From the NCBI GenBank assembly GCA_965655095.1, contig OZ296655.1:56420001-56484000 (forward strand): a stretch of 64,000 nt of DNA, written 5' to 3'. Position 1 is the first letter of the stretch. Each line of letters opens with the position of its first letter. The position numbers and the translations under genes were made by a program. Of the stretch, positions 15,774 to 64,000 are shown in pieces. The notes beneath the pieces are model-generated. The model made no database searches. It saw only the letters and a list, made by a program, of their open reading frames with translations, and had not been told where the DNA came from. This DNA comes from Haplodiscus bocki (Eukaryota).

Positions 15774-15847
15774 GGCCCCATAGCTCAGTCGGTAAGAGCA
15801 TTGTGCTAAAAACGAGATCGTCGAGAGTTCGAACCTCTGCGTGGACA
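15774..15847 (+). pseudogene. tRNA-Ile-derived copy 2
   Basis: Same 74-nt unit, with mismatches in the acceptor stem. Confidence 0.65.
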
Positions 15848-16060
15848 AAATTTTTTGTTTGTTTCTTTGTTAGTTTGTTTGTTAGCAAGATTTCTCAAAA
15901 TAGGAGGTAATGTATATCAACGACTGGGTTACAACCCAGGATATCCTGTTGGATCCTGATAACAGTTATCTGGAGATCCTGAATGGATCAGGATTTCAAG
16001 CAGATCCAGGATAATAGTAATCTGGTAATAGTAATCTGATAAGAGTAATCAGATAAGTAC

Positions 16061-16134
16061 GGCCCCATAGCTCAGTCGGTAAGAGCATTGTGCTAAAAAC
16101 GCGATCATCGAGAGTTCGAACCTCTGCGTGGACA
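16061..16134 (+). pseudogene. tRNA-Ile-derived copy 3
   Basis: Same 74-nt unit. Confidence 0.65.
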
Positions 16135-16347
16135 AAATTTTTTGTTTGTTTCTTTGTTAGTTTGTTTGTTAGCAAGATTTCTCAAAATAGGAGGTAATGT
16201 ATATCAACGACTGGGTTACAACCCAGGATACCATGTTGGATCCTGATAACAGTTATCTGGAGATCCTGAATGGATCAGGATTTCAAGCAGATCCAGGATA
16301 ATAGTAATCTGATAATAGTAATCTGATAAGAGTAACCAGATAAGTAC

Positions 16348-16421
16348 GGCCCTATAGCTCATTCGGTAAGTGGATTGTGCTAAAAACGCGACGGTCGAGT
16401 GTTCGAATATTTGTGTGGCCA
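16348..16421 (+). pseudogene. tRNA-Ile-derived copy 4 (more degenerate)
   Basis: Same unit; D-arm and T-arm mutated. Confidence 0.6.
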
Positions 16422-16489
16422 AGGTTTTTTGTTAATCTGATAATAGTAATCTGATAATAGTAATCTGATAATATTAATCAGATAAGTAC

Positions 16490-16563
16490 GGCCCTTTAGC
16501 TCAGTCGGTAAGAGAATTATGCTAAAAACGCGAGGGTCGAGAGTTCGAACCTCTATGCGGACA
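16490..16563 (+). pseudogene. tRNA-Ile-derived copy 5
   Basis: Same unit. Confidence 0.6.
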
Positions 16564-19500
16564 AAATTTTAATCCCGCGAAAAGCGGGATATTGCAATCA
16601 CCTTCGTGTGTCTGTCTGTTTGTTTGTTTGTTTGTTTGTTTGTTAGCAGGATTTCTCATAAACTACTGGTCGGATTTTGATGAAATTTGGTGAGTAGGAA
16701 GGTAATGATCATAGGAAGACCGAGTTCAAAGTTGGGTGTGATCCGGATTGAAATCCGGATCTGCGATCCGGATAACTGTTTCTCATGAACTACTGGTCGG
16801 ATTTTGATTGTGGGAAAGTATAGCCAGTCTTTCAATGCAGTAGTGGGTCATACATATTTACAACTTATTCCAAGGATGACTTGTGCAAGGGTGGATGAGT
16901 GGTCTATATGCGAGTCTCGGGAGATGGAGATTATGGTTTCGATCCCCGGTGACAACAGATAATTTTGCAATTTTATATTTTGTTACTGATCCGCGGGACA
17001 ATTATAAAATTTCGTAGTCACCGGGGATTCAACACAGAATCTTCATCTCCAGAGTCTCCCGTCAGTACCACTGCTGTACACTGCCACAACATGAAGAGAG
17101 AAATGGTCGTTTATAAATCGGTGTGGACGCAAAGACAAAAAGGATCAGCGATCTGAAATATCAACGACTGGGTTACGATCCAGGATATCGGAGGGTCCAA
17201 GGGCTTTCGCGGAATCTGCGCTCTCCGAGTGCCATTTTCTAGTTATTCTTGCAGTGCTTTGAGTATCAATTGGCAGCTTTTGTTTTGATTTCCTGGTGTT
17301 ATAGAAGACGTTATTTTGATTCTCAGAAATATTCTGAAATTGGGCCTAATTGGTCATTACGGGTAAACGAGATAACCTCTATGAATGTGAATTGCTCTTC
17401 AAGCCATACTCTCTAAAACATTCCTTTTCTTGAATATAATTTTTGATTAGTCATGAAGTTTGTTTTTATGTTTATTAGAATCTAAATTAACAATTACGTC
17501 ATGAATACTTTTTTGAAGTTATTCTGTCAACGCATTGTGATCACCAAGCATTGCTTGTCTTCCCTGATGTCATACTAATGATAACCTATCGTCACGCTAG
17601 AAATAGCTAGAGGTCAGGATTAGTGATGTTTTCTAGTAACTGTTCCTATTTCTAGCTGACCAATCAGAAGCGAATAGCTAAGTATAAAAGCGGTAACTCC
17701 TGTAACCTTCATTCATTCTTTCACTCGCCTCCATGCAAACCAGCTGCTAAATTCAACAAATTGTTGATTATCGACAGAAGACTCCAAAATTAATCTCTTT
17801 GTAAATCCTTCAATAAACTTGCGAGTTCTCTCAGAAATGTTACCCAATATCTTTTGGTGTAACAATAAAATCCGAACTAAAGCTTCCAGAAACTCCTTTT
17901 TTGACCATGACTTCAAAGAATTGACAAAAGACAAAAAAATTCAAAACCTGCGATGTCTCGAGAGGGAAATGGTTCTTGCATACAACCCATGAGTTTAAAA
18001 ACATTTCTTTTTTTCTGTAATGATGGTGCTTCAAAATAACACCTGCAAGTAGTAGCTCTCTGGGTATCGATGAACTGGTAATGCCCAGCCAAGACTACAC
18101 AAAAGTTGAATTTGTAAAGTCTGCATTTCTCAGTTTGATAATTTGATTCTTACAATATTTTCGTATGCTCCACATCATCATATCATTGTGCTCTGGGCCA
18201 CAAATTTCCTTTTCAGTCATTCTTGTTCGTTTTCGTTGTGACTGATTTCAACTTGGAAAATGAGGTACTCAGAGTGTAACGGACTGAGAAAAGGTTCACT
18301 GCTTTTTTCCGGTATACAAGCAATGAAATTTCGCCAGTATTTTTCAATACGGAAGCAGAAATTACCGCCACCATGTTTCCGGTAAACTGCCAATAACGCC
18401 CCTTTCTCCGTTTTATAACCGCTTCTCTGGCTACTTTTGACCACCGTTAGCGCCCTTATACCAATATTCTGGACCCAGGAACTGTTGTGGCTCGATAAAA
18501 TTTCTGTAGCGAGTACCATGGGAATTAATTGGTCTTTCACTTGGGTTGTTTATATGACGTGTCTCAGTTTGTAAGGAATATCACATTGTAAAGATTCCAA
18601 TCACATTCGGGCGCTGGGCAGTTTTGAGGGTTTTTGAACACAAGATCACTAGGTGACGACTAAGAAGGCTGAATGAAAAAAAAACTAATGATATTGATTT
18701 TTGTGAAATATCTGAGTGTTTCTTTAATCACGCTTATTCGTCACCCAAAACATGTATGTATCTCCTGAAATACATGAGGCTTTTCATTAAAATTTCTACA
18801 CTACAAAAAAGCCGTGGTTTTGTCTAAGAGAGTGTTTTCATATTACAATTTAACTCACCACTTTTTTCCTTCAAATGATTAAATCACAAAAACAGTTTGT
18901 TAAACAAATATATCGAAAAAAATGTGTCAAATATTTCTGAAGTTTGGCTTGCTTGAAAAACAATTTGTTGCCCGTCTGCAGATAACAATCTATCGGTTTT
19001 CGTCCGAACCAAACAAAACTTCACCCTGGTGACCCCACAAGACGTGTGTCTGTCTTCGAGTGATAGATAATGAAAGCGGAATAAATTCCGCCCTAATTTA
19101 TTGGTGTATGGATTTGCCTTGCCGGACGCCATTGCCTGGTATATAGCTTGTACTTTTTGAGGAGGTGGTCTCTTAGTGACGCTTGTTCGCCTATTCAGTT
19201 CTGAGTTCCCGCAATAACTCACAGAGGTGAGCTAGTAGTTGTTAAAGGGAATCAGTGACTGCTCTAATCTGCAGGGCAACTTCTTCAGACCTGCAGATAC
19301 GCTCGATGATGTCTGTACTTCGTCATCTGACATTCCCCTTGGAGTATTTTCGAACAAACTTTCAGTTTCGGTACTACTATCTATGTCATCGGTATAGATG
19401 GCTACTACTATATAGTCCTTTTCATAGATTGGAAAACGGGCTCAGACGAAGGTATTGATTGTTCATTTTAGTGAGGTTAATGTCAATTTTGACAGCAGAA

Positions 19501-23900: not shown

Positions 23901-26509
23901 GTGACAGAGGGGAGATTACGAGATTACTCGGGTGGAATTGCACAAATAGATGACGAAATTGAAGAAAAATTAAATTTTCGAATTTGCCCAAATTCTACTA
24001 TCAGCCTATTGGCCAGTAGGTATGACATGTCGAACATGCGCTGTTTTCCTATTGGTGGCATGAAAAAACAGCATGATGCCACTTTAGAGTCATTTGGCAC
24101 GATTGAAGGATTCATTATTATCACTCACTCGCTTACCGTCAACAACTTACTCTCTTCTTTCCTCTTTTCTCTTACTCTTAAAAACTTTGAACTTCCTCTT
24201 CTCTTGCCTTTCTCGATCTTCGAAATTATTCTAAGTCAAATTTTGACTTAGCCGCAAAACGCTCATCAGCGAAAATATCCTAAGTCGAATTCTGACTTAG
24301 CCACAAAACGCTCATCAGCGAAAATATTCTAAGTCGAATTCTGACTTAGCCGCAAAACGCTCAACAGCGAAAATATTCCAAGTCAAATTTTGACTTAGCC
24401 GCAAAACGCTCATCAGCGAAAATATTCTAAGTCGAATTTTGACTCAGCCGCAAAATCTCAATAAATCTGAAAAAACCGCCATTCCTCACCTCTTCACACC
24501 GATCAAATGATCCTACAGCAAACACTGCTATCTTCTGGCGCTCTCCCATTGGACGATCACTCGATTGCGCCATAACTGAGTATAAATACCCTGTACGCTC
24601 TCGTTTTATACATTCGCTCTCTTCAGTTAACTAACCTACTTCCCCGAGGCGAAACTCTCTTCTTCTTCACACTTACCATGACTCTAAATCAAAATCCTCA
24701 CCATTGAAATAATTACAAGACAATTTCAAAACTTGTCTTTCCCAAATTTCCTCATCTCCTCAATTAGAATTATTCTAAGACAATTTAAAAACTTTGTCTT
24801 AACCGCGAGTTCTATCTTTCAGAGCCAACTTACCTGCTCTCGATCTACTCACCGAATGATTCTATTGGCTCTCGTCCGAGATTGCAAGTACACGTGACCA
24901 TCCGGGTATAAATACCCAGCGCACATCCATAATATTAATTCGCTCGCTACAATTCACCTACTCAATCCCACGAGGCGCAACTCTTTTCGACCTTCTCCTC
25001 AATTCCTAACTTCTCTTACTTGAATCTTCCATTATCAATCCCCAACGGACAAAACCCAGATCATCACCATTCACCAACATCCACCTGAAGAAAACTAACT
25101 TCAACCCAATTCTTCTACTTCAATGATGGTATCAGTGAGTTCATCGTTTCATTTACTAGCAAAGTAATTCTCTCTAGAAATTCTTAGCAAATTTTTCCAT
25201 TTCAAACCCAATCAGTCAATAAATTACTGGTTATTCGAAAACTGCAAAAGTAAAAGATAAACCCACTCAACAATTACGCGAGTAAACTACCGCGTTTGAG
25301 ACAAGGGAATGTATGAGAAACAGCTCAGTAACCGTGAACACGAGTAACACTGAGTCTGAGATAAAATCTAAAAAGTTAAAACAATTCAAATCCCTCCAAT
25401 GAAATCCGAGGACTATGTCACGGTATAGACGAAAAGGGGAACTGAGACTTCTCGGCCAGTTACTATGTTAAACAAGTACTGAGTCGTTAAATAAAAAAAG
25501 AAAATACATGAAGGCGCCTCGTCAGTGGATTAACACTTGACTAAAGGAGGAACTTAAGGAAATTGACTCAGTTGACTGCTTTATGGCATGTTACTGGAGT
25601 CCTAGTTAAACTGATTACATATAACATAAGAGTAAAACTAAAACAAAACAAAAGGCAAAAAGTCTGAGATTGAAAAAACGAATGTAACCATTCGTCCTGG
25701 CTCCAAAAAGAAAAAAGGCCAAAAAGTTTACCTCAACTTAATTATGATAAACATTTCCAAAAATCTTTGGAAAAATTTGTAAATTCATTATTATCGATTA
25801 TTATTCTCGTTAATTCGAATGATTCAAATATCAGTTAAAAAATTTATACTTGATTTGATGTATTGTATTTATTAAACACTGCGATGCCTTAAACTTCGAA
25901 TTTTTCATAAAAGGTTCCTCCTCGAATATTTCGGATATTCTGATAAATACTTTGGATTTGGCGATACTGGCTGATATTCTTCTTGAAGGGGACAAAAATA
26001 TACAGTGGCGATAATATCTTCTGATACGGGGATAGTACGATAGTGATATATTACAGTTATAATTACAGTTTCTTTCGGGTATATTAGAGTTAAAATTGAT
26101 ATGATAATTGTTATAGATTTGTAGAAAGTTTTATAAAATTTGGAAGATGGCTGCTGAAGTTTATTAATTTGGATTTTTCAAATCTCACCCCTAATAATCT
26201 CACCCATCCGAAATTTCATCTTATCTTGTACACATTTACTTTGTACAAGTTGACTGCCACTTCCGTATATTCATTAAATAATTCATCTCTTAGTTCATAC
26301 TCTTTCTTTGCTCACCAAGTCCTTGCTAGTAGAACTTACGCAACTTTGTTCGCGTGGTTTAGCAAGGCAAATTTACAAAGCTTATAACAGTGTAAGCTTT
26401 TGAGACTTTCTTACACGATAACGCAGACATATGGCCGCACACGCCGCTCAGCAATATTAGCTAGCGAGAACAATAGTAAACAATTAATAACTTAGTACAC
26501 CCGCGACAC
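23901..26509. mobile_element. Putative ~2.6-kb solo LTR or other inserted element
   Basis: Ends GTGACA...CGACAC are flanked by TAGG on both sides (23897-23900; 26510-26513). Contains two duplicated TATAAATACC promoter-like modules, a 49-bp tandem array and a decayed minus-strand ORF. Confidence 0.35.
24225..24455. repeat. 49-bp tandem repeat, ~4.6 copies, each with two palindromes
   Basis: Unit tctaagtcaaattttgacttagccgcaaaacgctcatcagcgaaaatat at ~24230, 24279, 24328, 24377 and 24426. Confidence 0.9.
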
Positions 26510-48360: not shown

Positions 48361-50151
48361 TTCTGTTAGTCAGCCACAACTTTGTTGTTTTCAAATCTGC
48401 AATTTCTGAACAAAAGACACCGCCCTTGAGAAATCGTTTTAGTTTTCTTATTGCCCATTGCAGAAACCTAGGGTCAGCAGCTCTCTCTTCAGATGATAAA
48501 AAAATGGTGAGCATACAAATTCTCAATCATTTTTAGACCCCCATTGGACCATTGGACAGGCACCTACTCTTTCGTGAACTCGACTTCTAGTGGTTCTGAA
48601 GAAAATGAGCAGTTACAAACTGAAGAACTAGCTTCGCACAGACTTTTGTCAGGACTTGGAAGAGCTTGTCCGCAATCTTCTCTTAACTGACGCATTCCAA
48701 TTTTAAATTTGCCAAGGATTCAGTTTTTCCTGTCCGGATCATCTTCACTGTTGGGGACAATTTTTCAGCCTTTCGCTTGTTGTTGTAGCTCCCTGATGAT
48801 TTATTTTAGATGGTTGGATCGAAGAATAGAAGCCTGTAATGCGGAGTTTCATTCTCTTGGGAGGGAATAGAGGCAACTGAAAAGTTGCTCCACGATGAAG
48901 AGTCCCGATGTGGGTCTTATCATAACCTTCTGTGGATTCCGACCTAGTCTCCGTACTGAGCACAACTAGTTTTGCTTTTTTACAGTTTCCAGGTGTAAAT
49001 GGAGTCGATTCAGCTTGTGTTCTTTTATCACTATTGTGTTCCATGTCTTTCAACTGACTGCCATAGTTTTATGTGCGATCATCAATCAGTTCAGTTACTT
49101 TCCTGTTGCTTTGGACATTAGACTCTCCAAATCAGTTGCATCAAATGCCAGAATATTCAAAACCTTTTCTTGTTGATTGTTCTATTCTTTTGATTTATTT
49201 CCTTTGAGATGGTTGAATATGATTATTCGAACTAAATCTAGTTGTTACGTTGAAGCAAACACTGTTTTTCACAAAGAAAAAGTCAACGAAAATGAGGGCT
49301 CATCAGCCAGTTAGGCGAGACTTTGAAGGCATCTGTTATTGGCAATGACACTAAGGAGAAAGGAGTAAAAACTAAACTAATGAAACAGAACATTTTTTCC
49401 ACAAATGATTAAAAAACAAGTTAAACCCTTTGCAAAGAGCTCAAATTGTCAACATTTGCAAAAAAAAGAAAAATATAGTTGCTGCAATCAAAAACACTGC
49501 TCACGAAGCAATTTTGACGACGAAATGACTGTGTTTAGTTTTAAAATCTCGGTTATGTCGATTAAAACGTCCTCAGGATATGAACTTGACTGTCTGAATT
49601 ATAATCCTGACCGAATCGATTTTTCGCGGAACACAGAAGAAACTCTGCTCAAGACGGCATCTAGCTGAACTGATTCAAAAGTTAATCGTAACAGAAATGA
49701 AGAGATACGAAAGAATGAAACCATCGAGGACGACCATGTTTCAGAAAAGACATCAATCGTTCACCGGCAAGGGCATATTCGTCAGATTGGAGGATTGCGT
49801 TTTCCCTATCGTATTTTTGTGTGAGGCATAAAGCTTCCTCTACTTCAAAACATCCAGTTTTTCTCTACCTTTTTCACTACAGATGACGCCCTAATGCTTC
49901 CACAGGGTCACGGCCACAGTTTCCATCACTCGAATTGGACATCTTAATGACGAGTACTGGTGTCTGCTCCGGAATTTTCGTTAACTCCAAATATTGTTAT
50001 ATGAGAAAATAGCCTTGAAATTAGAAAGCGTGACTAACCACAAGCTGGTGTTTCAAGAAAGACAAAACTCGCAAAGCAACCTTAACTACGGAAATCATAC
50101 TGCTTAGTGCTTCATTTGTTGACTGTTTCCAAAATAACAAGAAGGAATGTA

Positions 50152-51300
50152 AGTAGTGTATAAACAGGCATTTGACGCCAAAAGCCGCGGACGCAGCATC
50201 ACCCCAAAATACGGCAAAATACGGCAAAAATACGGCAAATATGGTAAAATGTAAAAAAAAATATTTATACTTGTCAATGGGGGAGCACAGGAAAGAATTT
50301 TTAGTTTTTTAAAAATATTTTTTCATTTACATATCAATGGGGGTACACAGGAAAGAATTTTTAGTTTTGTAAAAATATTTGTTGTTTATGTATCAATGGG
50401 GGGAACACAGGAAAGAATTTTTAATTTTGTAAAAAATATTTTTCGTTTATATAAACGTGAAAAAATAATTCATCGTTTACATGAACGTAAAATTGAACAA
50501 CAATGGTAAAATGAACTAGCACGTGTATTTTTATATTAGTATTTCCTTTTCTATTTCGTCTCCATATAGCCTAGTGGTATTTGTTACATAGACTAAAGTT
50601 AAGGCTGTGCTTAATTGTATAGTCGTCGTGTTTGTGGTTCACGACTTCAACGTCCCACTGTCTTTGTCACATCACGCGCAAAAGCTATATGGGGGAACTG
50701 TCTACGTCTTGATGCTTGAAAAAGAGGAAAAGACCGATGGGGATATCTACCAGGAATGCTCACTCGGATATGCTAGAAATAGTAGATTAGAAAGTTGGCC
50801 AGTGGATATTTTTGATTTAAACGTAAAACACGATTTCTGAGAAATACAAAAACTCTGTCGACATAGCTTAAACATGTAGAGATTATAAACTTTTAAGCTA
50901 CAACAAAGTGTGATATGTCGTTGGATAGCTCGTTAAAAGTTATGTATACCCTGAAAATTTCAACTTTGTATCTATTATAATCTTTGAGAAAATTGACAAA
51001 AACAGTATATGTCGACATCCTTAAACATGTAGAGATTATAAAATTCTAAGCTACATTTACAAATGATATACCATTCGATAGGTCGTTAAAAGTTAAGTAA
51101 ACCCTGAAAATTTCAACTTTGTATCTATTATATTCTTCGAGAAAATTGACAAAAACGGCACATGACGTCATCCTTAAACATGTAGAGATTATAAAATTTT
51201 AACCTACATCAAAGTGTGATATATCATTCGATAGCTCGTTGAAATATTAGTGTACGTTGAAATTTTCAGCTTTGTATCTGTTTCCATTTCCGAGAAATTA
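50152..51300. repeat. Putative left terminal inverted repeat region with nested tandem repeats
   Basis: Starts AGTAGTG. (AAAATACGGC)x3 at ~50205-50240; three ~61-bp units (caatgggg..cacaggaaagaattttt) at 50273-50450; three 153-bp units (ttaaacatgtagagattataaa at 50868, 51021, 51174). The partner TIR is not in the window. Confidence 0.6.
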
Positions 51301-51441
51301 AAATTATACTTATCTATACAAGTATAAGTATCATTATATTATTACAAAAGTAGTATTCATACAAATATAAGAATAATTATACTAGTATTTGTATATTTAT
51401 TCATGTAAGTATATGCAAAATGTAAAGTATTTTTATGATCA

Positions 51442-51816
51442 TTACATATTTCTGAAACCTATAATTTCACCAGTATCACTATCTTCTGATAACTCATAAT
51501 AAACATCATATTCAATGGATTCGTTCTCTGTATCATCATCATTTTCATATTGTGATACACCATTATACAATTTTTTGATTTCTTGTAAAACATTAGGTTT
51601 TTTCAAATTAATCATATTTGTTATTTTAACAGTTAGATCAATCAGATCAAGAATAGCATCTTCACAATAATTCAAATCATATTTCTCGATTCTATCATAC
51701 ATTTTAAATCTTAACACTTCTGATACATAATATAATTTATTATTGTGTTCGAAATCAAACATGTTATTTTCATCAAAACTATCTAAATACAGCAAAACAT
51801 CTTTAATATCCTTCAT
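51442..51816 (-). CDS. Hypothetical acidic protein (124 aa) of the Maverick
   Basis: Intact ORF with a TAAATG start context, like neighbouring genes. Confidence 0.65.
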   Translation of the reverse strand: MKDIKDVLLYLDSFDENNMFDFEHNNKLYYVSEVLRFKMYDRIEKYDLNYCEDAILDLIDLTVKITNMINLKKPNVLQEIKKLYNGVSQYENDDDTENESIEYDVYYELSEDSDTGEIIGFRNM

Positions 51817-51860: not shown

Positions 51861-54800
51861 TTAACAGTCCCATGGTATACTTTTAATATTATTTATATAA
51901 CATCGTTTATCATCAAACAATGATAGTGTAGATTTTTTTACCTCTTGAAGAACCATTTCATGATTAATTGATCTTATAATATAATTATTACATTCTCTTT
52001 GATATTCTTTACAAAATAAACAATTGTAATATTCTTCAAATTTATTATGTTTTGATTGAGATTTTGAAACTCCTTTTATTTTATTTTTATCCTCTTTATT
52101 ATCTTTACATTTAAACGAATATGCCTTTGATCTTAAACAAACAAATTCATCAATCCAAATATTTTTAGGAGTTTCTATTTTGAATTTACCAATTACTTTT
52201 TTGTTTTTATTACTGAATAATTCATGATTTTCATCTAAGTTACTGAAATCAAAATTATTTTCTGAATTTTTAAAATCTTTGATAATGTCTTTTGTTTTCA
52301 TACTTAAAACAAATGAATCAGTATTATGAACTATCAATGGAAAACCACAATTAAAATCATGTGTTTCTGTTTCAATATCATAAACATAGTCATTATGTTT
52401 TCCAATGTTTATAATTTTATGAACTTTTTTATCACTTATTTTATTTACAGTATTTAAATGGAAAACATTAAATTTATCATTTCTAATACCAATATAAGTT
52501 TTTAATCCTAATGATTGACAAAGATATTTCAAACCAGATATTGTAATCTTATTTTTTTGTGTTATAGAAATATTTTTACATTTATTTATGACCATCAGCT
52601 GCATAAAATCCAATGAAGAACCATTTTCTATTCTCAAGTGATTCGTTTAATATTTCATTTGGGATTCTTTTTTCTTTATCTTTAGTATAAAATTTATCAA
52701 ATTCTAAGGCTAAGTTTTTTCTGCCAGATATTATTCTATATACCTGACTACTTTCCCTAACATCATTTGTTTTAAAATTTATATCATTCCAAATGTCTTT
52801 ACAAAATCTTTGTAGTTTCTGAATTACGTTAAAATCCTGATTATTCAAATGCCAACAATACTTTATTGTATTATATTTGTAAATTCCAGAACTACCATCT
52901 CCTAAAAAGAAGCCTTTGACAAACATTTCTTTTTCTCTCAAAGTTTCCCGTTCGATGTTATAAATTTTATTAATAATTTCATCAAAAGTAATTTGTGGTT
53001 CGTTGAAGTTCATGAAATTATGTAATAATTCTTCACCTATTTCTAAATCAGATGGTTTAATAATTTCTCTATCTACGCCTATCAAACTATGATCTTCTGT
53101 CACATCAACAACAGCATGTTTTGTTCTTATTCGATAAATATTTTTTTCAGTTTTATGTCTAACTAATTTTTTGATATTTTGCCATCCATTACTTGTCCAT
53201 ATTTGAAAGTTATTACAATCGGCAAATTCTTTATACCCCCAAGAAGTAAGTATATTTTCATTTACATACCAATCTTCTTCATCAACAATTTCATCAATTC
53301 TCAAAATTTTAATATTTTCATTTTCTTTTAACAGAATTGGGGTGTCTTTTGTTACACTATCCATATAATGACATTGTAGAATTTCTTGACCAAAATATGG
53401 TTGTAATGTATCATAATATGTTTCATACATGTGTAATTTACTCAATTCTAATATAGCAAAACCAACATATATAGCTTTATCCATAACTACTTCGTTTTTA
53501 TTGAATGTATAACTATCATAGTTTTCATAAGATTTTTGAATACCATTGAATGTTAATTTTGATTGTTGTTTAACAATTTTTTTAATGTCACCTTTTTTAA
53601 TTAATTCTAATCCTAAACGTTTGCGAACATTTTCTAAAAATTTACCAAAAGCAGCGTTATTAAGCAATTTAAAGAAGTCTTTTTCGAATTCATTTTTAGC
53701 TTTGTTTCGTTTTTGTGTATTAAAACTAATATAACCTTCCAACCATTTACTCTGTTTAAATGATATTATTTCATGAATTTTTACAACTATCATACCATGT
53801 CTAACATAAAATTTTAACATTCTATAATGAACCAGATACTTTTTCTTATCAGACCAATCACATATCAACTTTTTCGATTTTGTATAATTTTCTGGTTTTA
53901 TACTTTTCATATATTCATTATATTTATTTGGATCTATTTTTTTATTCTCTGGACAAAACGGAAAATATTTGGTTTTTTGTTTTATATTATCAGGATATTT
54001 TAGATCGATTTCAAGAAAATAACCAATTTCACTATCATCTGGTGTATTTAAAATTATATCTAACCATTTCCAATATTTATCAGGATGACCATGCCACATC
54101 TCGATTTCATCATAAGGTAAAAATTGACTCATTGAATGGCCATATAAATTAGTAGCATCTATATATAAAATCTTTTTATTTCCATCTGATTTAACATAAC
54201 GATCTCCCATAACACCTGATATACCTCCACGAATACCATCTTCTATTAATAAAATCAAATCCTTATCTTGTAGTGTTTGTAATTTAATATTAGTATATTT
54301 CAAAGCACATTGATAAGTATAACCAGGTAAACTTACACAATATAAAGGATTAATACCATATTCTTTAGTAGATACTTTTACAAATTTTTCAAAAACATCA
54401 GCTAATAAAATAACATCACTTTTACAATATAATTTAGTTAATTGTTCTCCATTTTTGATATTAAATAGTTTTATAATTTCTCTTGTTCGCTCTATTTCGT
54501 CATCATCAGGATAATCATTTTTTAATTTATTGAAGAAGTCTTCTTTATTTAAATTATTAACAGGTTTTTTATAATCATCAATACTATTGAAATATTGATA
54601 TGGGTATGCTAATTTTTTATTGAGATATTGCCATTTGTCAGGAAATTCTTTTTTCAATATTTTAAAATCATCTTCATCTAAATTTTTTACTAGTTTATCC
54701 AAACTCTCTGATAAGAAACGATAACTATCAATAAATCTAATACAACCATATTTAACTGAAATATATTCTTCGTTTGTTTTAGGTATAATTTTAAATTTTA

Positions 54801-56568
54801 CTTTATCTTTTTTTAAATCAACTAATTTTTTAAAGAACATATGACAATCGTAATTACTAAAATTATGAAAAGCAAATGGTATAAAATTACTATCTTTCTG
54901 TTTAACGTTTATATTACAAGTGTTATGAGCAGCTCCTCTGTATTTACCAGTCAAATGGCAATGATCACGAACTTTATCAGATAATATTTCTTTTTCACAA
55001 AATCGGCATATGTTATTGTTTTTAAAATATTCTTCATCTTCTTGTGTCATAATGATATCTTTCTTAGTTTCTTTAAAATAGAAAGCCATTTTATTTTCTA
55101 ATTTTATTACTTCTTTAACAAACCAATCAACATTATCATATCCTAGAGGAGATTTGTAATATCCACTTTTCAAAACATCTTCTAATTCAGATATTATATA
55201 ATAACCATTAAGTACAGGTTTTTGTTTGTAAATATTAGTTGTTTTGTTTCCTATCTTAGTATTATCTTTTTCATTATCAGCTTCGAAATCGGCAATTATT
55301 CTAAAATAAAGTTTGTTTTTATGAAAATGTTTTTTCCAATAAAGATGTGATTCATTCGATGTTCTGATAGTACATATGTTATCTTCTCCATATTTATCTT
55401 TATGATTTATCAAAGCATTTTCACAAGTATAAGAATTTAAACAACGTCTACATACAAAACTTTTGTGATGATCTCCTAAAAATACATGTAGTTTTTTAAT
55501 GAGAGCATAATGATTTTTATAAATTAATAAGTCAATAACTTTATCTGAACCATTTTCACTGATTTCTATAGGTATTAACTTATAATTCCATTTTTTTCCA
55601 TCTTGATAAAAGTTTAATTCATATATATTTACAGATAAATTATTTAGTTCATTAAATCTGTGAACATCACTACATTTAAAACCATTTGTAAATTCAAAAC
55701 TTTGAAAGTTTAATTCATTAAAATAATGTAAATAATTGTTTACTCTTGATGGATGGGTATTTTCACAAGGATAAAGACTAGCTAAAATTGACCAAATAAA
55801 ACAATATTTATCATTATTTTGAATATTTATGATAGCATTTGTTCTCAACGGAATTTTAACATAAGAAGTACCATTTAATTCTTCAGTTTTATAAAATGAT
55901 TTTTTCATTGAATTAATTTTATCAAGTATCCAACCTGATTCTTTTGTTTCTTGAACTTGAATTTGGTGTTCTAATTGAGATCTAACATCAATGTTATCAA
56001 TATCAGATTCTGTTAAATTATGATTAATTTTTAAGTTTATATATAATTCAATTTCATTATCTCTAAAATCATATTCGTTAATTTTATAAAAGCTAGCTGA
56101 AAATAATGTGTGATATTTAAATTTATATTGATTTATTAATCTAGCATAAATAACAGATAACTCTTTTACGATTTTATTAATATATCTAAAATCAATACCA
56201 ATGTCTGGATATTTACATGTAATAGTCAAAATAGAATTTGCATGACTAATATTATGACTTTCTAAATTAATATTGAATCCATTTTGTAAATTATTATCAA
56301 TAAAATAATATGGATTAATCATTATTTTAGCTAATTCTTTAACATCCAATTTAATTTTTTCTCTTGCTAATTGTTTTAATGTTTTAGGGTTATATAGTTT
56401 TTGTATTTTTTTCTTAATAGGTGTTCGCTCTTCCTTAAAAAACCATTCTGGTATAATCATTTCATTTCGGTTTATATTTTCTAAATGTTTTTTGCTTCTC
56501 AAATGTTTTGGCATAGATGCTCTGTGAACATTAACATTACAAATTTCACATGTGTGGCTGTTTTCCAT
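51861..56568 (-). pseudogene. polB: Protein-primed family B DNA polymerase precursor with intein, interrupted by one frameshift at ~52584 (ORFs 52582-56568 and 51861-52637)
   Basis: N-terminal C2H2 finger, ExoI IIADFE, EndoVII-like CRFC...RDHCHLTGKYRGAAHNTCN, ExoII HNFSNYD, ExoIII YCKSD, motif A YIDATNLYG, motif B KLLNNAAFGK. Motif C is split as YMD|intein|TDS; then GKFKIE, LRSKAY, KGV and DDKR. The repaired, spliced product would be ~1223 aa. Confidence 0.95.
52323..53358 (-). mobile_element. Intein (~345 aa) with LAGLIDADG homing endonuclease at the pol-c site
   Basis: Block A SVTKDTPILL, block B VTEDHSL, endonuclease motifs VKGFFLGDGS and FIGFYAADG, block F YVYDIET, block G IVHN followed by Thr+1. 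Length 1036 nt (3n+1) owing to the frameshift. Confidence 0.95.
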
Positions 56569-56665: not shown

Positions 56666-57517
56666 ATGACTCAGAAAAATATTAAAATATTTATTAACGA
56701 AATATATTCCAAAGCACCGAAAAAGAATTATATTACAAACAAAACAGACGTGTACTGTAATGACGACATATGGTCTTTAGATATTCTCGATCTCAAAGAT
56801 TATGGTCCTGAAAACAATAGAGGATATAGATATGTCCTTGTCACCATAGACAATTTTTCAAAATTTGGTTGGACAACTCCTTTAAAAAATAAAAATGCTT
56901 TAATAATAAAAGACTCTTTCGAAAATATTTTATTAAGTTCAAAAAGAAAACCAAATTTAATTGAGGCAGACAGAGGTAAAGAATTTTATAATAATATTTT
57001 TCAAGACTTTTTAAATAAAAACGATATCAAACTCTATTCTAGAAATAGTTCATATGGTGCTGTTTTTGCTGAAAGATTTAATAGAACAATCAGAGACCTT
57101 CTTAAAAAGATCGTTTTCGAACATGGTGTTGCAAATTGGATTGATGTATTAACTACAATAACAAAACAATATAATAATCGAATACATTCATCAACAAAAT
57201 TATCTCCAAAAGATGCTTCTTTAAAAAAGAACGAAGGATTTGTTTACAAAAATTTATTAGATAAACGTAAAAAAGTAATACCAAAGTTTCAAATAAACGA
57301 TCTTGTTCGAGTTGCTGATTTAAAGAAAACGTTTTCGAAATCGGATACGACTAATTGGTCCTACAAATTATATAAAATTACAGAAATAATCAATGATACA
57401 ATACCAGCCTATAAAATCGATAATTTATCAGAAAGATATAACGAATCATTATTAAAAAAGACTGATTTAACATTAAAAGAATACAATAGTGTGATGAAAA
57501 AATTAAATATTACTTAG
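56666..57517 (+). CDS. int: Retroviral-like (rve) DDE integrase, 283 aa
   Basis: WSLDILD, LVTIDNFSKFGW, IEADRGKEFYN and AERFNRTIR motifs; C-terminal FQINDLVR..NWS..LYKI SH3-like region; no chromodomain. The stop overlaps the MCP stop. Confidence 0.95.
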   Translation: MTQKNIKIFINEIYSKAPKKNYITNKTDVYCNDDIWSLDILDLKDYGPENNRGYRYVLVTIDNFSKFGWTTPLKNKNALIIKDSFENILLSSKRKPNLIEADRGKEFYNNIFQDFLNKNDIKLYSRNSSYGAVFAERFNRTIRDLLKKIVFEHGVANWIDVLTTITKQYNNRIHSSTKLSPKDASLKKNEGFVYKNLLDKRKKVIPKFQINDLVRVADLKKTFSKSDTTNWSYKLYKITEIINDTIPAYKIDNLSERYNESLLKKTDLTLKEYNSVMKKLNIT

Positions 57518-58764
57518 ATCAAATGAAACATCCGCTGACCATCACTGGTTATGCTAACCAATCTATTTGTCAAAACTAAAGCATATCCATATATCCCAGC
57601 AACAATATTTTCTGAAAATTTAAATTCTACTTTGACAGGTTGCGCGTTTTCAAAATTTTTCTGATATCGTATATCGAAAGCATATATATTATAACCAATA
57701 TTATTATCTTCATTAGAAGATCTAAAATCATTTTCAGATATATATGGTTGTAATATGTCATCTTTTGTTAAAGCTCTGAGAGCTTCTTTTATTTGACTAT
57801 ATCCTTGACTATAATTATCATCATCATAATTTAATAAAATACTAGAATCAGGATACCTTTCTGTTCCGATAACAACTTGAGCAGATGTCACTGGAAGTCT
57901 GACAAAAGTATCATTGTTTAAATTTTGATCATGTTGTCTTTCATTTTGTTGAAAATCTACAAATATCCATGTTGGAATGTTAATACCTTCTTGTGTCCCC
58001 AATTCAAAAGTCCAAAAATTTTGAGTATTTACTTCTTTCATAAAAACAGATCTTTCAGAATATTGAATTTGTGTAGATGTTTTGTTTAAAATTTGTTTAG
58101 ATAATATACTTTGTTGTTGTATTGAAGGAGTATAATGGGGTACATACCATTCTATAGCATTAATTTTTATTTTACCAATATTAATTGCATTACATTTATT
58201 CAAAACGGTGTTGTCAGTATTTCTTGTCAATGTTAATTTGTAGCCAAGACCATATGTAGCTTTTTCTTGATATTCAGCGAAGCCAAAAACATCTTTTATA
58301 TAAATCCTAACATGATATTTTCCTTTTATATTTTTGTTATTAGTTAATTCATTTCTTCTTCTTGTCCGATCTCTATCAAAACCAATAGACAAATCATCAG
58401 ATCCTTTACTTGATGTTAAAAGTTTATACATTAATGATACTATATGACTGTGATCAATATTTTCTAGGTGTTTTCCAGAACTAGTTGTTAGCTTATAATT
58501 ACTAAATAAAGCAATAGGACCCAAATTAACTAATCTAATATCATTATCGTTTGCATATCTGTTATTAGTACGAGCATGTAATACATCAAAATTTAATTCA
58601 AGATAACTATTTAACAATGAAATAACACTATCTTCTCTAGGTATGTTAATATATACTTGTGAATTAGTAGTATTTATTGCGCTTATTTCAGATGGGCTGT
58701 ATCGTATATAATCACATTTTAAAATGTCTCTGTTAATTTCATATTTCTCACTTAGTTTGAACAT
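57514..58764 (-). CDS. Double jelly-roll major capsid protein (hexon-like), 416 aa
   Basis: Size, beta-rich composition and Polinton MCP-like segments (INIPREDS..SYLELNFDV, LFSNYKL..SGKHLE, IEWYVPHYTPS, ERYP, IYAFDIRYQ). Position within the Maverick. Confidence 0.8.
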   Translation of the reverse strand: MFKLSEKYEINRDILKCDYIRYSPSEISAINTTNSQVYINIPREDSVISLLNSYLELNFDVLHARTNNRYANDNDIRLVNLGPIALFSNYKLTTSSGKHLENIDHSHIVSLMYKLLTSSKGSDDLSIGFDRDRTRRRNELTNNKNIKGKYHVRIYIKDVFGFAEYQEKATYGLGYKLTLTRNTDNTVLNKCNAINIGKIKINAIEWYVPHYTPSIQQQSILSKQILNKTSTQIQYSERSVFMKEVNTQNFWTFELGTQEGINIPTWIFVDFQQNERQHDQNLNNDTFVRLPVTSAQVVIGTERYPDSSILLNYDDDNYSQGYSQIKEALRALTKDDILQPYISENDFRSSNEDNNIGYNIYAFDIRYQKNFENAQPVKVEFKFSENIVAGIYGYALVLTNRLVSITSDGQRMFHLI

Positions 58765-58794
58765 TTAAAAGGTAAAAAAATATAATAACACATA

Positions 58795-59040
58795 CACTTA
58801 TATGAGAATTTATACTAAACTTTAACAGATTTTAAAAAACAGTTATACTCATATACAAGTATGTATACTAAATATAATTACTCTCATCATACTCATATAA
58901 AAACATCATACTCATATATAAGTATGTATACTAAATATAATTACGCTTATAAGACCACAATAAAAATATCATACTCATATATAAGTATGTATACTAAATA
59001 TAATTACACATATTAGAGTATAATTGTTATAAGAGTATAA
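58795..59040. promoter_or_regulatory. Tandem ~63-bp repeats upstream of the MCP gene
   Basis: atactcatata(c/t)aagtatgtatactaaatataatta x3. The core is also found upstream of the penton-like gene. Confidence 0.5.
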
Positions 59041-59043
59041 TAT

Positions 59044-59901
59044 TTATTTCTGTAATAGATCACATTTAAGTGAAATTTGTTTATGTTCTTTTTTAGATAT
59101 GCATCTGTATTCTAATAATTTATCAACTATAGCAACAATTTCTTCGTTAATTATATCAGAATTATTTCCAGCATTTTTCTCTTGTAATAATAATTTTAAT
59201 CTATCACATAATTCGTTTGGATCAGATGATAAAAATATTGTTTTTGAAATACCTGAAGCAGAAACAATTAAACCTGGTGATTTTAATAATTTTATAAGAG
59301 TTTTATCTCGAGTAGGTTTTTTGCCTACGGCATTCATATCAAAATGCATTTCTTTTGCAAAATCATACATCAATTTTTTATTCGCTAAACTAGCATGATC
59401 AACGTTATAGTCCTTATTAGTTATCATTTCCAAAAGATCTCCTGTTAATTCAAAGTGTTTATTTGTATCACGAAAAGTTAACATATTACCATATAAAGTG
59501 ATTGGTATTTTATTTTTCATTAACAAATCGTTTACTCTATTCGAGTTATGATCTTTTACTAATTTAAATTGACTTTTGTTTTCTGGATTGGTTATTTTAG
59601 ATAAAGGAGACATTAAATACGTTGCTAATATACCTCTATCGTTCATTATTTCTAAAAGATTATTATTTATATTCTCTAATGCTAGGTTGTTTTTAATACA
59701 AGTTTCTGTTATAGCTTTTGTTATATTTTCAGAAGTATTTTCAAGTTATTTGGTAACTGGTTCAAATACTTTTTTTATATCTTCATGAAAATTCTGTTCA
59801 CCTAATTTGTCTTGTAATTTAACAACTTTTACTTGATTTTGTAATGAAACCAAGTCTTCTAATTTTTCTAAATCTTCTCTATCTTTTATTGAATATAACA
59901 T
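59044..59901 (-). pseudogene. Conserved Polinton protein (~285 aa) with an in-frame nonsense at 59746-59748
   Basis: ATG at 59901 is in frame with ORF 59044-59646: MLYSIKDREDLEKLEDL...KKVFEPVTK*LENTSEN. The C-terminal SDPNELCDRLKLLLQEKNAGN motif is typical of Polinton ORFs. Confidence 0.75.
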
Positions 59902-59955
59902 TTAAAATATTGTAAATATGAATGTTTACAGAAAATGTGAATGTGATATATGTTT

Positions 59956-60714
59956 TTAAAAAGGTTTTGTTTGAGGTGTTGCTTCTAAGTATGTGTTTTT
60001 ACTTTCATTACAAATGCAATATCTTCCTTGTTCTCTCCTTTTAGACCTATCAATACAAAGATAATTATAATCATCTTCCCATGATTTTCTACATAATTCT
60101 GTAAATTCATTATAATCCATATCATAACCTGCGACATCTCTATATATATGTTCAATATCTTTTAACGTTTGATTAAACAAAATTATTCTATTACTATTAT
60201 TTCGTATCGTTCTCTTTGGTAAATCAAAATAGGATTGTGATAAATAATATATATCTAGATTATTGTGTCGTCCTCTAATAAAAAATTGGTCTATAAATCT
60301 ACTATTTGTTGAACCTAAAATATCATCAAAAACTATGATACCATTTTCATATTCGTTTAGAGGTTTAATTTCATCGCTTATTTCTTTAATTTTTATTTTA
60401 GAATTGGTATACTGTTCTGGGGGTGATTTAGTGATTATATAAATATCTCTGTCTGATATACGTGAAAGAATTTTTAACATCAAATAAGTTTTACCTGAAA
60501 AACTGGGTCCAACCAATAATGTTCGATTGTTATTGTTATTTTTATTTATTGATTGTTTTGGTGTATTAACGTTTGGTTGATTATGAGGTAAAGTGGTAAT
60601 ATTGTTTTTTCTTTTCTTTTTATTATAACAATCTCTACAAATCGTTCTATCTTTCTTGTAATTATTTATATCTAATTTTATGTTACATGCAGAACAATTT
60701 TTATTCTTATCCAT
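59956..60714 (-). CDS. A32/FtsK-HerA family genome packaging ATPase, 252 aa
   Basis: Walker A GPSFSGKT, Walker B IIVFDD, RGRH, YLSQSYF and IRNN; N-terminal CxxC...CxxC. Confidence 0.92.
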   Translation of the reverse strand: MDKNKNCSACNIKLDINNYKKDRTICRDCYNKKKRKNNITTLPHNQPNVNTPKQSINKNNNNNRTLLVGPSFSGKTYLMLKILSRISDRDIYIITKSPPEQYTNSKIKIKEISDEIKPLNEYENGIIVFDDILGSTNSRFIDQFFIRGRHNNLDIYYLSQSYFDLPKRTIRNNSNRIILFNQTLKDIEHIYRDVAGYDMDYNEFTELCRKSWEDDYNYLCIDRSKRREQGRYCICNESKNTYLEATPQTKPF

Positions 60715-60845
60715 TTAAAATACAAAACAGTTCGTTTTCACATTTACATTGAACAGAACAGATCAACATAAACGTTTTTAAGTTCTAGATTGAAATTTTA
60801 ATTTATTATGACTAAAAAAGTTCAATTTTATTTTTATATTCATAT

Positions 60846-61379
60846 TTATAAAAAAGATTCATTTTTATTTTCGTCGACATATTTAGTAAAAATATTACAT
60901 AGACTTTCATATTCAGTTTTATCAATTACATTATCTTGTAAAGATTTTCTGTATAATTTATCAAAAGATTTAATAGTGTTTTGATCTCTTTCATATTGTT
61001 TTTTATGTTTATTGTATTTGTTTATAATTACTTTATGTAAAATTTTGTTACCTAATGATAAAGCACAAGCAATACCAGCTGATATTGGTAAAATAATCAA
61101 TCCTATACCTGTAATTGATAGAGTTATCGAAGTTGACGTTGCTCCGATGTTTACGATACTATCTACTGATTCTAATACTGTGTTTAAAGTTTGGTAATTT
61201 TTATATTTCTTTTTTGATTTATTGTTTTTGTCTTTGAAATAAGTTATCATTTCTTTAATGTTGTTGATGTGGTTATTAAAACTGTTAATATCATTTATTT
61301 TTTTCTCTAACCGCTTTTCTAAATCAATATTTTCTAATAATGGTGCTGTTGGGTATAATTTATCAATTTTTGCTTCCAT
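60846..61379 (-). CDS. Coiled-coil plus hydrophobic hairpin membrane protein, 177 aa
   Basis: Gly/Ser/Ala-rich hydrophobic stretch SIVNIGATSTSITLSITGIGLIILPISAGIACALSLG, flanked by basic helices. Confidence 0.7.
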   Translation of the reverse strand: MEAKIDKLYPTAPLLENIDLEKRLEKKINDINSFNNHINNIKEMITYFKDKNNKSKKKYKNYQTLNTVLESVDSIVNIGATSTSITLSITGIGLIILPISAGIACALSLGNKILHKVIINKYNKHKKQYERDQNTIKSFDKLYRKSLQDNVIDKTEYESLCNIFTKYVDENKNESFL

Positions 61380-61417
61380 TTATATAACATAAAATATAAA
61401 AATACTCTTATATTGGT

Positions 61418-61834
61418 TTACGTAAATCTAGGTAAGTATAAGCCTTTCCCGGTATGATAAAAATTAATCACTTCTGGTAATGATGTCAAAGCTGCTTTCG
61501 GGTTTCGAGAAGCAAATGCAGTACCAACGTTTGCACCAATTTCGAGAGCTCTTCCGGGGTTTTTTGAAACGTTTTTTGCCATCTTTTTTGATACATTTAA
61601 TCCTTTTTTACCTAAGTTTTTACAGAAATCACCAAGACCTTCTGCTTGAATCACATTATCAGAAACAATCATAGATTTTTTTCTATTACAAACCATGCAT
61701 TGTCCAACTAATAATTTAACATCTTTACCGGTTTTTTTATTATTTCGTATTTCTCCAACTATATTTTTTGTGCCTGATTTGTGTCTGCTTCCAACACAAT
61801 AACTATCACTTTGAAATTTTTGAGAACTACTCAT
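61418..61834 (-). CDS. Small basic virion protein: Zn-ribbon-like N-terminus plus amphipathic helix, 138 aa
   Basis: YCVG...GQCMVCNRKKS, then QAEG-LGDFCKNLGKKGLNVSKKMAKN; C-terminal TGKG-LYL. Confidence 0.7.
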   Translation of the reverse strand: MSSSQKFQSDSYCVGSRHKSGTKNIVGEIRNNKKTGKDVKLLVGQCMVCNRKKSMIVSDNVIQAEGLGDFCKNLGKKGLNVSKKMAKNVSKNPGRALEIGANVGTAFASRNPKAALTSLPEVINFYHTGKGLYLPRFT

Positions 61835-61885
61835 TTAAAAGATAAATAAATATAAATAAATATATTTGTATGTAAACATGTTTGT

Positions 61886-62965
61886 TCAAATTTTGATCAT
61901 TTGTAATGTAAAAGTCAACGTTTCTCCATTAAAATTAACTTCTTCTTTATTATCATCTTCTAGATAAAAAGTTATAGTATTCAAAATAGATTTATTCATT
62001 TTTTTATAATGTATTGTTTCTGGTTGACAAAATACTTTGTATCCACTTGGTTTATCTAAAACAAAACTAAACAGAATTGGTTGTCTTACTCCATCTTGAA
62101 TACTACCATCGATAATATCACATTTCAAATGAATTTTATTTATTGTGTTTAAATTTAAAATAATTTTATTACTAGTATAAACACCAGGTTTGTAATCCCA
62201 ATATGGTGTAAAACCCAATAAAGTATGAAAAAAAGATTTCTCATCAAATCTTAAAGTTTCAAAAGTACTACCAAAACGAGTTAAATCAAGTTTAACTTTC
62301 TTGTTTAAATCGTCAAATTCAATTTGTAAGGTTCCTTCATGATCACCAAGAAAATAAACGGCTTTTTGAATATCTTCAATAGTATAGTTACCAGGATCTA
62401 ATTCATAGGTTACAAATTATTCATTGTATTGTTTTAAAATCAATCGAATATTATCTTCTTCTAAACCAACAAAAATCCTAAGATAACTTTCAAAATCTCT
62501 AAATGATGAATTAGTATAACCCGTTAATAATATAATAAAACCATCATGACTTGTTTTATCTGATCTTAATTTCCTATAGGTTTTAGCTATACGAGGAGCT
62601 AATGTTTCATCTTCTAAATGATCGTCTGTGATTTCTGGAATGTTAAGGATTTCTTCAAGTTCATCTTTTAATTCTCGAAATGAAAATTCATCAAAAGTGT
62701 CTGTATAAAGTTCAAATTTGTTATTTTCTTTTGTTATATTAAAAATAGAATTGTATACTTCTAAATCTATCAAACCCAACATCCAGTCTCCTTTAGTTTG
62801 AATTGGTGGATTAAAATGAAATGTTTCTTTTGATTTGAGCATTTTGAATTCGAGTGTTTCTTCTGGTTTTCTATGCGTCTGTTCAATAAGCGTTTCACAA
62901 TTTTTAGTTATTGATAATAATAATTTTTCGGTTTCATTTTTAGGTTGGATCGTATTTAAATTCAT
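61886..62965 (-). pseudogene. Minor capsid (penton-like) protein A, ~359 aa, nonsense at 62417-62419
   Basis: ORFs 62417-62965 and 61886-62218 are in frame, and the sequence between them is open apart from one TAA. Motifs SIFNITKENNKF, GNYTIEDI, LGF, IHLKCDIIDGS...QPILFSF, ITFYLEDD..VNFNGE. Confidence 0.8.
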
Positions 62966-62968
62966 TTA

Positions 62969-63122
62969 TGTACTCAAATATTCTGTATACATACAATTAT
63001 AATATCATACTCTTATAAAATACTCATATACTAAATATCATACTCTTATACAAAAATGTATATGAGTACAGTTCTTATATGAATATAAATCTTATATGAG
63101 TACATTTCTTATATGATTATAA
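62969..63122. promoter_or_regulatory. Direct and inverted ATACTC(A/T)TATA repeats upstream of penton A
   Basis: tactcttata/tactcatata and inverted tatgagtaca copies. Confidence 0.45.
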
Positions 63123-63125
63123 TTT

Positions 63126-64000
63126 TTATATTTTAATTAGTTGACAAGTAAACGATATCGTTTCTCCATTAAAATCAACAGCTTTGTAATCGTCATCTTC
63201 AAAATAAAATGTGATATGAGATAAAACAGATTTATTTATTTTTTTAAAAAAGTTTAACTTTTTGTTCTTTGTAAATTTTATGACCAGGCGGTTGATCAAG
63301 AGCAAACGAATACAAAATTGGTTCTCGGACACCATTTACGATGCTGCCATCAACAACATTACATTTAAGATGATCTTTATCAATTCCTGTAATATTAATA
63401 GGTTTATCACTTATATATGATCCCGCAATCAATTGATAAAAACCTTCTATATCATCTAAAGGATAAGAATGAGATTGAGTAAAACCCAATATACTATAAA
63501 AGAAGCTTTTATTTGTGAATATTAACGTTTGATTAATTTTTAAATCGGTTTTATATTTTCTTTCATCTATAGTAATATCTATTTTTACGTTATTTGGTAG
63601 AATATTTTTTAAGGTTTTGTTTAAATCAACGACATTATATATGTTGGGTTCTATCGTATAACCCATTCTTTCTGTGGAAATATATTTCAAGTCTAATATA
63701 TCCATAACTTCATCATATGTTAATCGGAATCTATATACCAAATCTTCAAGATCATTGTATTTAGCATTTTTTAAATCTTCAAGTATTTCATCCTTAAACA
63801 TGTCAAGACTGGATAAAGAATAGTCATTTATTAAAATTAACCCTTTTTTTCTAACTTGTTCAACATTTAATTCAATACCGTTTTGAGACCTAAGCTCCAA
63901 TAATCTATTTAGTTCATCAATAGTTTCTTCATCAGATTTGTTTTGGTAATGACCTGGTATAATGATTGAAAACGAATTATTTTCATTAGTTATATTAAAA
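63126..64000 (-). pseudogene. Minor capsid (penton-like) protein B, 5' end beyond the window, +1 frameshift at ~63246-63251
   Basis: The frame is open to the window edge (FNITNENNSF...). HLKCNVVDGSIVNGVREPILYSFALDQPPGHKI...; an extra T in CTTTTTTAAAAAAA shifts to KKINKSVLSHITFYFEDD..VDFNGE. Paralogous to penton A. Confidence 0.8.

Follow-up and report, generated by a model that had tools for sequence, protein, structure and literature searches.

The window (the whole 64,000-nt stretch of Haplodiscus bocki DNA that was analysed) contains a complete Polinton of ~18.4 kb, which extends from position 50,152 to 4,551 nt past the window end (in L025). Polintons (Mavericks) are characterized by terminal inverted repeats and a 6-bp target-site duplication, both of which are present here, together with genes for a protein-primed PolB (pPolB), an integrase, a double jelly-roll capsid protein and a packaging ATPase (Table 1). 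For the maturation protease and minor capsid protein, candidate open reading frames gave no Pfam match or are located past the window end. The left terminal inverted repeat holds tandem repeats of 60 nt and 153 nt (50,268–50,443; 50,867–51,325), and intergenic repeats of 63 nt (58,833–59,021) and 17 nt (63,033–63,126) within the Polinton have a short motif in common. On the host side, repeats at 15,326–17,189, 24,216–24,460 and 3,289–4,122 comprise duplications of 287 nt and 198 nt, a palindromic family of 27–34 nt and a 49-nt tandem array; part of 15,328–16,790 also borders another locus (L020). Wnt genes on large contigs of this 1.5-Gb genome mark the host as an animal.

Table 1. Features of the Polinton and its intein, in window coordinates
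Feature	Position	Strand	Remarks
6-bp target-site duplication	50146..50151	+	second copy after right end, 4,551 nt beyond window (L025)
Left terminal inverted repeat, starts AGTAGT	50152..51298	.	1.15 kb, 88% identical to right repeat
124-aa ORF, variable slot downstream of PolB	51442..51816	-	no family above cut-off
C-extein of protein-primed PolB, starts TDSF	51861..52322	-	
C-side flank, +1 to +18	52305..52322	-	differs from intein-free relatives; Ser codon TCA like mini-genes
Intein C-part: endonuclease end and C-terminal splicing blocks (short form, His-Asn end)	52323..52583	-	
Frameshift, A-rich run	52584..52590	-	
Second LAGLIDADG-type motif, GFYAADG	52591..52611	-	
First LAGLIDADG-type motif, GFFLGDG	52894..52914	-	
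Intein N-part: Ser1, block B (TEDH), linker, most of endonuclease	52585..53358	-	
N-side flank, -1 to -15 (CHYMD)	53359..53373	-	differs from intein-free relatives
N-extein of protein-primed PolB, subfamily A2	53359..56568	-	PF03175, 56.5 bits, above cut-off
Retrovirus-like integrase	56666..57517	+	PF00665
Double jelly-roll major capsid protein	57514..58764	-	PF21738
A32-like packaging ATPase	59956..60714	-	PF04665

The polymerase gene is interrupted within PolB motif C, between YMD and TDSF, by an insert on the minus strand (53,358-52,323) that begins with Ser and ends with His-Asn, giving the junctions YMD↓S…HN↓TDS in the window sequence. Every motif on which the preliminary description based an intein at this position is present there, and the intein is real; the polymerase was also correctly called protein-primed, its N-extein exceeding the PF03175 cut-off (a match to endonuclease VII is weak and below cut-off). 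That description did not record that the insert, at 1,036 nt, is no multiple of three: the reading frame is lost near 52,585, within an A-rich run, so that the PolB gene of the window copy is broken. The splice residues are nevertheless all in place (Ser1, block B Thr-x-x-His, the His-Asn end and Thr at +1). With its two halves taken apart, the window intein matched PF14890 and PF14528 below cut-off; the unbroken genomic copy L004 matched above cut-off (PF14890, 39.1 bits; PF14528, 42.7; PF05204, 25.8), and PF14528 and PF05204 were above cut-off on copy L007 as well. Both catalytic LAGLIDADG motifs are present in the intein. The intein is in frame in other copies (e.g. L004), and intein-free alleles also exist. 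The stretch is a full-size homing-endonuclease intein, for which splicing and cleavage are predicted.

Giant-virus relatives of the intein

The N-terminal half of the intein matches 66 long proteins, the top ones being other Polinton polymerases (65–89% identical, one at 42%) and the best non-Polinton ones RNA/DNA-primed PolBs (rPolBs; 47% and 45%); at E 0.001, a wider search matched 2,035 proteins, 150 of them listed. Neither extein had a BLAST match (E 1e-3) to the six rPolB proteins whose inteins match the window intein at 45–47%, and alignment showed the intein to be collinear with giant-virus PolB inteins, endonuclease included, as the preliminary description had proposed for the Mimivirus intein. 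These comparisons support its proposal of a jump between polymerase subfamilies, in which the intein crossed between RNA/DNA-primed and protein-primed PolBs. Other Polinton lineages with the intein include the P0003 cluster (136 members), P0007 and P0004, whose intein is 65% identical to that of the window whereas its extein is 54% identical, hinting at movement between lineages. Two other protein-primed PolBs (P0063 and P0066, PF03175) have a distant motif C intein (24–34%), apparently a separate acquisition.

Outside Polintons, both the top matches to the intein and its neighbours in the trees are PolB inteins of Nucleocytoviricota. One of the top matches, P0006, is 100% identical to a gene of the giant-virus MAG GVMAG-M-3300001352-24, and its extein groups (support 100) with a genome that supplement rows of PMC8575486 list under Imitervirales IM_08. 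The same type of intein is present in additional MAGs, which are listed under IM_01 g329. A C-terminal block shorter by one residue is found in 30 of the 152 inteins examined (118 have the long form and 4 neither), and this short-block set consists of all 9 animal-type Polinton rows and 21 viral-type PolB rows (one duplicate), which include six IM_01 g329 MAGs. Like the window intein, the Mimivirus PolB intein (351 aa, Ser…Asn↓Thr, at shared PolB site III; Ogata 2005, PMC549080) and its allelic giant-virus counterparts have the motif C site, Ser…Asn↓Thr junctions, a LAGLIDADG endonuclease and a length of about 350 aa (PMC549080). Unlike the Mimivirus intein, that of the window resides in a protein-primed Polinton polymerase within an animal genome, and its nearest kin by shared indel and score are the inteins of the IM_01/IM_08 MAGs, Mimivirus having been compared by description.

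In the careful tree, which was built without 11 of 62 rows (long branches or near-duplicates), the Polinton inteins form one clade with a long stem (100/99) inside a 27-row group (81/93), with a bootstrap that had not settled and the sister left open. FastTree and one quick tree placed asfarvirus-like rows as sister, and another quick tree the short-block group. The asfarvirus-like label of P0268 derives solely from its best solved-structure match, 8ywg, which we take to be from an asfarvirus. A constraint uniting the Polinton inteins with the short-block group gave p-AU 0.513, with lnL 0.28 higher than the free tree; one with an Asgard-archaeal intein as sister was not rejected (p-AU 0.157), and one with a Mimivirus-like set was weakly rejected (p-AU 0.032), this set having an inferred label, having been named after a tree was viewed, and including no Mimivirus sequence. 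For the intein rows, the boundary rule left 78 longer matches unextracted, five were added by hand, and 7 extracted rows were dropped. The trees are unrooted, so that the virus-to-Polinton direction rests on nesting, and the neighbouring rows are overwhelmingly RNA/DNA-primed PolBs of giant-virus type.

By sequence, the kin of the Polinton intein are thus, with good confidence, giant-virus rather than archaeal. The short-block Imitervirales group is the favoured nearest relative, the donor family being a preference and not a result, and a cross-class transfer from giant viruses to Polintons is likely, its direction taken from nesting. Of the Mimivirus-type affinity claimed in the preliminary description, the giant-virus part stands, since giant-virus PolB inteins are the best matches outside Polintons, but IM_01/IM_08 is the better label. 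Searched separately, the exteins match none of the six rPolBs tested, and the intein has giant-virus PolB inteins as its neighbours outside Polintons, but the top matches are other Polinton inteins and the sister varies among trees. Phage inteins reach 28.5% identity to the window intein at most.

It is quite unlikely that an archaeal PolB, or any other PolB not of giant-virus type, was the source of the Polinton intein, or that the intein went from Polintons to Imitervirales. A related intein does occur in an Asgard-archaeal PolB (36% identical to the window half), the host kin of which were confirmed as Heimdallarchaeota, and the constraint that makes it sister was not rejected; moreover, the viral inteins with the short block form a separate clade that stands next to the Polinton inteins and does not enclose them. 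However, the Asgard intein scores lower (154 vs 193 bits) and has the long C-terminal block, and the giant-virus-type PolBs that dominate the surroundings in the trees also speak for the viral source preferred above. The Asgard-archaeal PolB has a Heimdallarchaeota relative at 89% without this intein (P0178 and L308). Members of the same intein family in topoisomerase II-like proteins (P0034, for which PF00204/PF00521 are listed, P0308, P0311, P0335, P0341, P0342, P0346 and P0230) form their own clade, and two close giant-virus polymerases have different inteins at the same site, a 156-aa mini-intein and a 364-aa full intein (L023:10001-14854; L021:9914-11005). Viral-contig scans with the intein and with its tree neighbours P0235, P0268 and P0246 found no relatives by which to name these neighbours, the intein was not found in an Atlas search, and a PDB search with it gave one weak match, to an archaeal-type intein.

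The preliminary description also saw in the jump a hint of a virophage-like association of the element with a giant virus. That the intein came from a Mimivirus-type giant virus living in such an association with this element is highly improbable. The best non-Polinton matches are indeed giant-virus PolB inteins at the same site, and transfer required one shared cell at some time, but the Polinton inteins are one long-stemmed clade that spans very divergent exteins, the Mimivirus-like grouping was weakly rejected, and the element itself, a Polinton of an animal host, has an integrase and a polymerase of its own. The host assembly was searched for giant-virus PolB as an NCLDV marker, and the fragment used had one weak match only, which reads as an exon of what is presumably host Pol delta; a PF04451 capsid search of the host, in which no control matched, counts neither way. 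The jump into Polintons looks old, because the one long-stemmed clade extends over exteins down to 36% identity, and would predate the element by far. Because of this apparent age and the failure to find a giant-virus PolB in the host assembly, the virophage-like tie is not supported. The immediate donor of the window intein appears to have been another Polinton.

Polymerase types and free-standing intein genes

One Polinton backbone is combined in this genome with three polymerase types: A1 (site YMD↓TDSF), A2 (site Y(I/V/L)D↓TDG) and B, which is unrelated in sequence (best E 0.14 against type A) and has PF03175. Exact-pattern counts, which are lower bounds with controls of 0–2 across patterns, gave 1,207 empty YMD↓TDSF sites (A1-type, a pattern that also catches distant Polintons), 926 empty Y(I/V/L/F)D↓TDG sites (A2-type) and 974 type-B polymerase ends. 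The ~926 A2-type motif C sites (L217–L245) are a possible escape from the intein endonuclease. The Cys codon TGT at -5 is present in 37 of 44 old filled copies vs 0 of 38 empties, and filled and empty A1 exteins are interleaved in the tree. This codon, in following the intein, bears the signs of flank co-conversion (described in PMC3943268) and of homing within type A.

Of 317 candidate places for the intein in the genome, 150 were scored, and 15 of the 20 best intein loci are free-standing, outside any polymerase. Each such mini-gene is a separate frame of about 362–368 codons with its own start and stop, consisting of a start, ~ten codons ending in YMD, the whole intein, and TDS with a few codons to the stop. 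The leader, MN(K/E)(S/T)QL, comes from a resident Polinton gene family, the start of which is fused here to the last ~five polymerase codons. Mini-genes are located directly downstream of an intein-free type-B polymerase, which is without the target site, and all five of the mini-gene regions mapped share the backbone of the window element (integrase mostly 85–90% and capsid 72–89% identical). The exact patterns matched 51 mini-genes and 47 filled type-A sites (controls 0). The whole intein is thus a free-standing gene in at least 51 sister Polintons, whose own polymerase is unrelated and intein-free. There has been no sweep, since the intein is present at only ~5% of type-B and ~4% of A1 sites. 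The full-length copies read number 97 (44 mini-genes and 53 in polymerases), and the splice residues are largely intact in the mini-genes: Ser1 in 25/26, TEDH in 26/26 and HN↓T in 40/44.

The slot downstream of the type-B polymerase (L086–L115) contains variable small genes or none, the intein mini-gene being one such cargo; among the first 30 type-B loci, one has a mini-gene, which is truncated. Three mini-gene copies (L148, L157 and L205) have an internal deletion with one common junction, so the broken form has itself been amplified. In the search of other Polinton lineages, the leader was found among shorter matches only in P0125, P0128, P0134 and P0138, which may be from this same organism. 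Contigs of two runs from one study cover 30/30 bins of a mini-gene locus; no single piece spans it, and they do not constitute independent support.

Among the 26 unbroken mini-genes, variants in at least two copies include 38 amino-acid-changing and 49 silent ones, a ratio of 0.17 (0.16 in the endonuclease part) by a crude site-wise count; the corresponding ratios are 0.44 for mini-gene singletons, 0.09 for the adjacent polymerase (10 copies) and 0.16 for polymerase-borne inteins (17 copies). The second catalytic motif is kept in 26/26 and the first in 22/26. The shared-variant ratios point to constraint while the elements spread, and the mini-gene is very probably kept by selection. The excess of unbroken frames (30/44 mini-genes vs 9/53 polymerase copies) was rejected as evidence of selection, being confounded by age (nearest-neighbour distance 0.018 vs 0.070) and by the choice of some loci for their long open frames.

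The benefit to the carrier may be interference with rival elements, a suggestion that is tentative. The mini-gene could also be a passenger without benefit, whether a selfish endonuclease gene or the cargo-slot remnant of a polymerase swap, with its constraint imported from polymerase-borne inteins. This would accord with the varied cargo of the slot, the single truncated mini-gene in the first type-B loci and the threefold copying of a deleted form; it is rather unlikely, given that silent variants outnumber amino-acid-changing ones among those shared within the mini-gene clade, in both domains, that only five polymerase-borne inteins are near enough to donate, and that the mini-gene is placed behind the start of a resident gene.

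Acquisition of the window intein and its possible role

The subfamily to which the window polymerase belongs normally has no intein and differs in its site (926 copies). Together with four other copies, the window falls into a separate extein group, A2 (five A2-filled). Among the 30 loci nearest to the window N-extein, 27 have an A2 site without an intein, 2 are filled and 1 is without the site. The window differs from the A2 empties only from about -15 to +18, A2 letters resuming at +19, and this is the polymerase span retained by most mini-genes. The Ser codon at +3 is TCA in the window, in 39/42 mini-genes and in 1/44 old filled copies, as compared with 0/27 A2 empties and 0/11 A1 empties; these flank counts were made without 2/44 mini-genes and 9/53 polymerase copies (the five A2-filled, and four misregistered or partial). 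No empty site with the window's flank was found genome-wide.

The window intein groups with a mini-gene (90/97), and another A2-filled copy falls within a mini-gene clade of 37 rows (100/98). Monophyly of the mini-genes is rejected (p-AU 0.015), the A2-filled inteins nesting among mini-genes at two places. A2-filled inteins are 92–95% identical to mini-genes and about 72–84% to old filled copies. Several mini-genes resemble A1 beyond +18; therefore, the likely order is from A1-filled polymerase to mini-gene to A2. The window intein quite probably came from, or was converted by, a mini-gene.

Alternatively, the window intein and the mini-gene might both descend from an unsampled polymerase-borne lineage, with later recombination of 90%-identical intein copies and no homing from a free gene. 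Consistent with this, the TCA flank occurs in one old filled copy (L189) and hence existed in a polymerase lineage; a partial polymerase-borne copy (L186) groups with a mini-gene; the five A2-filled inteins have a common start (codon 4 Asp), absent from most mini-genes, which points to mosaics; and only part of the 317 candidate places was read. Such a history seems unlikely, in that the converted tract of the window ends, on both sides, where the polymerase remnant of the mini-genes ends, and that the A2-filled inteins are closer to mini-genes than to old filled copies and nest among them twice. Derivation from a mini-gene is preferred. The A2 and A1 sites differ at coding positions, with only 15–18 nt of flank for repair, and the enzyme may fail to cut the A2 site.

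Taken together, a giant-virus polymerase is the probable source from which the intein family entered Polintons long ago, and the window copy would be recent, from the free-standing gene of sister Polintons. After entry from a giant-virus PolB, an illegitimate join in a filled A1 polymerase would have given rise to the mini-gene. Expressed from its borrowed start, the mini-gene would trim itself and release the endonuclease, which, in cells where elements replicate together, would cut the motif C DNA of type-A polymerases that have no intein, the carrier's own type-B polymerase, without the target site, being spared. Most cuts would harm the rival element, and rare repair over the 15–18 nt flank would copy the intein with short flanks into the rival polymerase, as in the window; the rarity of such repair fits that of the intein in A2 (5 vs 926). 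It is possible, and not more, that this marine giant-virus intein has two interconverting states, one in a polymerase and the other as a free self-trimming endonuclease used against rivals, A2 being an escape variant and the free gene homing back with its own flanks.

The yeast HO endonuclease is an intein-derived LAGLIDADG gene free of its host protein, and a single domesticated cellular gene. The mini-gene is similarly free-standing and intein-derived, but it is multicopy cargo of a mobile element and has 92% DNA identity to inteins still in polymerases. Homing endonucleases in viral competition are represented by the free-standing genes of T4 (PMC3943268) and by gp210 of phage PhiPA3, an intron endonuclease that acts in phage interference (PMC11620839), and a similar competition role was proposed for Bodo saltans virus (10.1101/214536). 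As in these cases, the endonuclease is aimed at an essential gene whose target is absent from the carrier's version, flanks are co-converted, and homing in trans is possible. Unlike them, the mini-gene belongs to an integrating virus of a eukaryote and is a whole intein that retains its splicing residues and short stubs of the exteins; its cutting is predicted, and it appears to have re-entered a polymerase.

The intein, the Polinton and the free-standing homing endonuclease are each known, but the combination is unexpected. Literature listings drawn mainly from openly available papers yielded no report of a LAGLIDADG intein in a Polinton polymerase, nor of a whole intein that stands free in a mobile element. 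The available text of PMC12220804, PMC11161782, PMC10748475, PMC5718144 and PMC3671162 contains only HNH, GIY-YIG and VSR domains or general lists, and Krupovic 2024 (PMC11161782) in that text only suggests intein invasions.

Polintons thus carry roughly a hundred or more copies of the intein in the chromosomes of one animal, and there are signs of homing. Because homing requires the enzyme and two elements to be in one cell, it is indirect evidence of joint replication of Polintons and of competition between them. A link between giant viruses and animal Polintons would be provided by a datable gene transfer across polymerase classes, and the intein would have a route, absent from standard models of invasion and decay, by which to leave its host gene, stay intact and return. 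If the proposed course is true, endogenous viruses in an animal germ line are engaged in a homing-endonuclease arms race, and an intein has a means of surviving apart from its host gene. With filled, empty and variant sites numbering in the thousands in a single genome, these questions are accessible to census and to a simple cleavage assay.

The exchange of polymerases has a precedent in the Polinton/Maverick pPolB1/pPolB2 swap, in which one backbone has two very distant pPolBs (Jeong 2023, PMC10748475). Here too, one backbone occurs with either polymerase and nuclease domains lie inside pPolB, but the inserts in the pPolBs of that study are HNH and VSR domains, not inteins, and the word intein is absent from its available text (PMC10748475). 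Like the nematode swap, two unalignable pPolBs occupy the same backbone position in H. bocki (L026–L037 and L041–L043 vs window 56,666–64,000).
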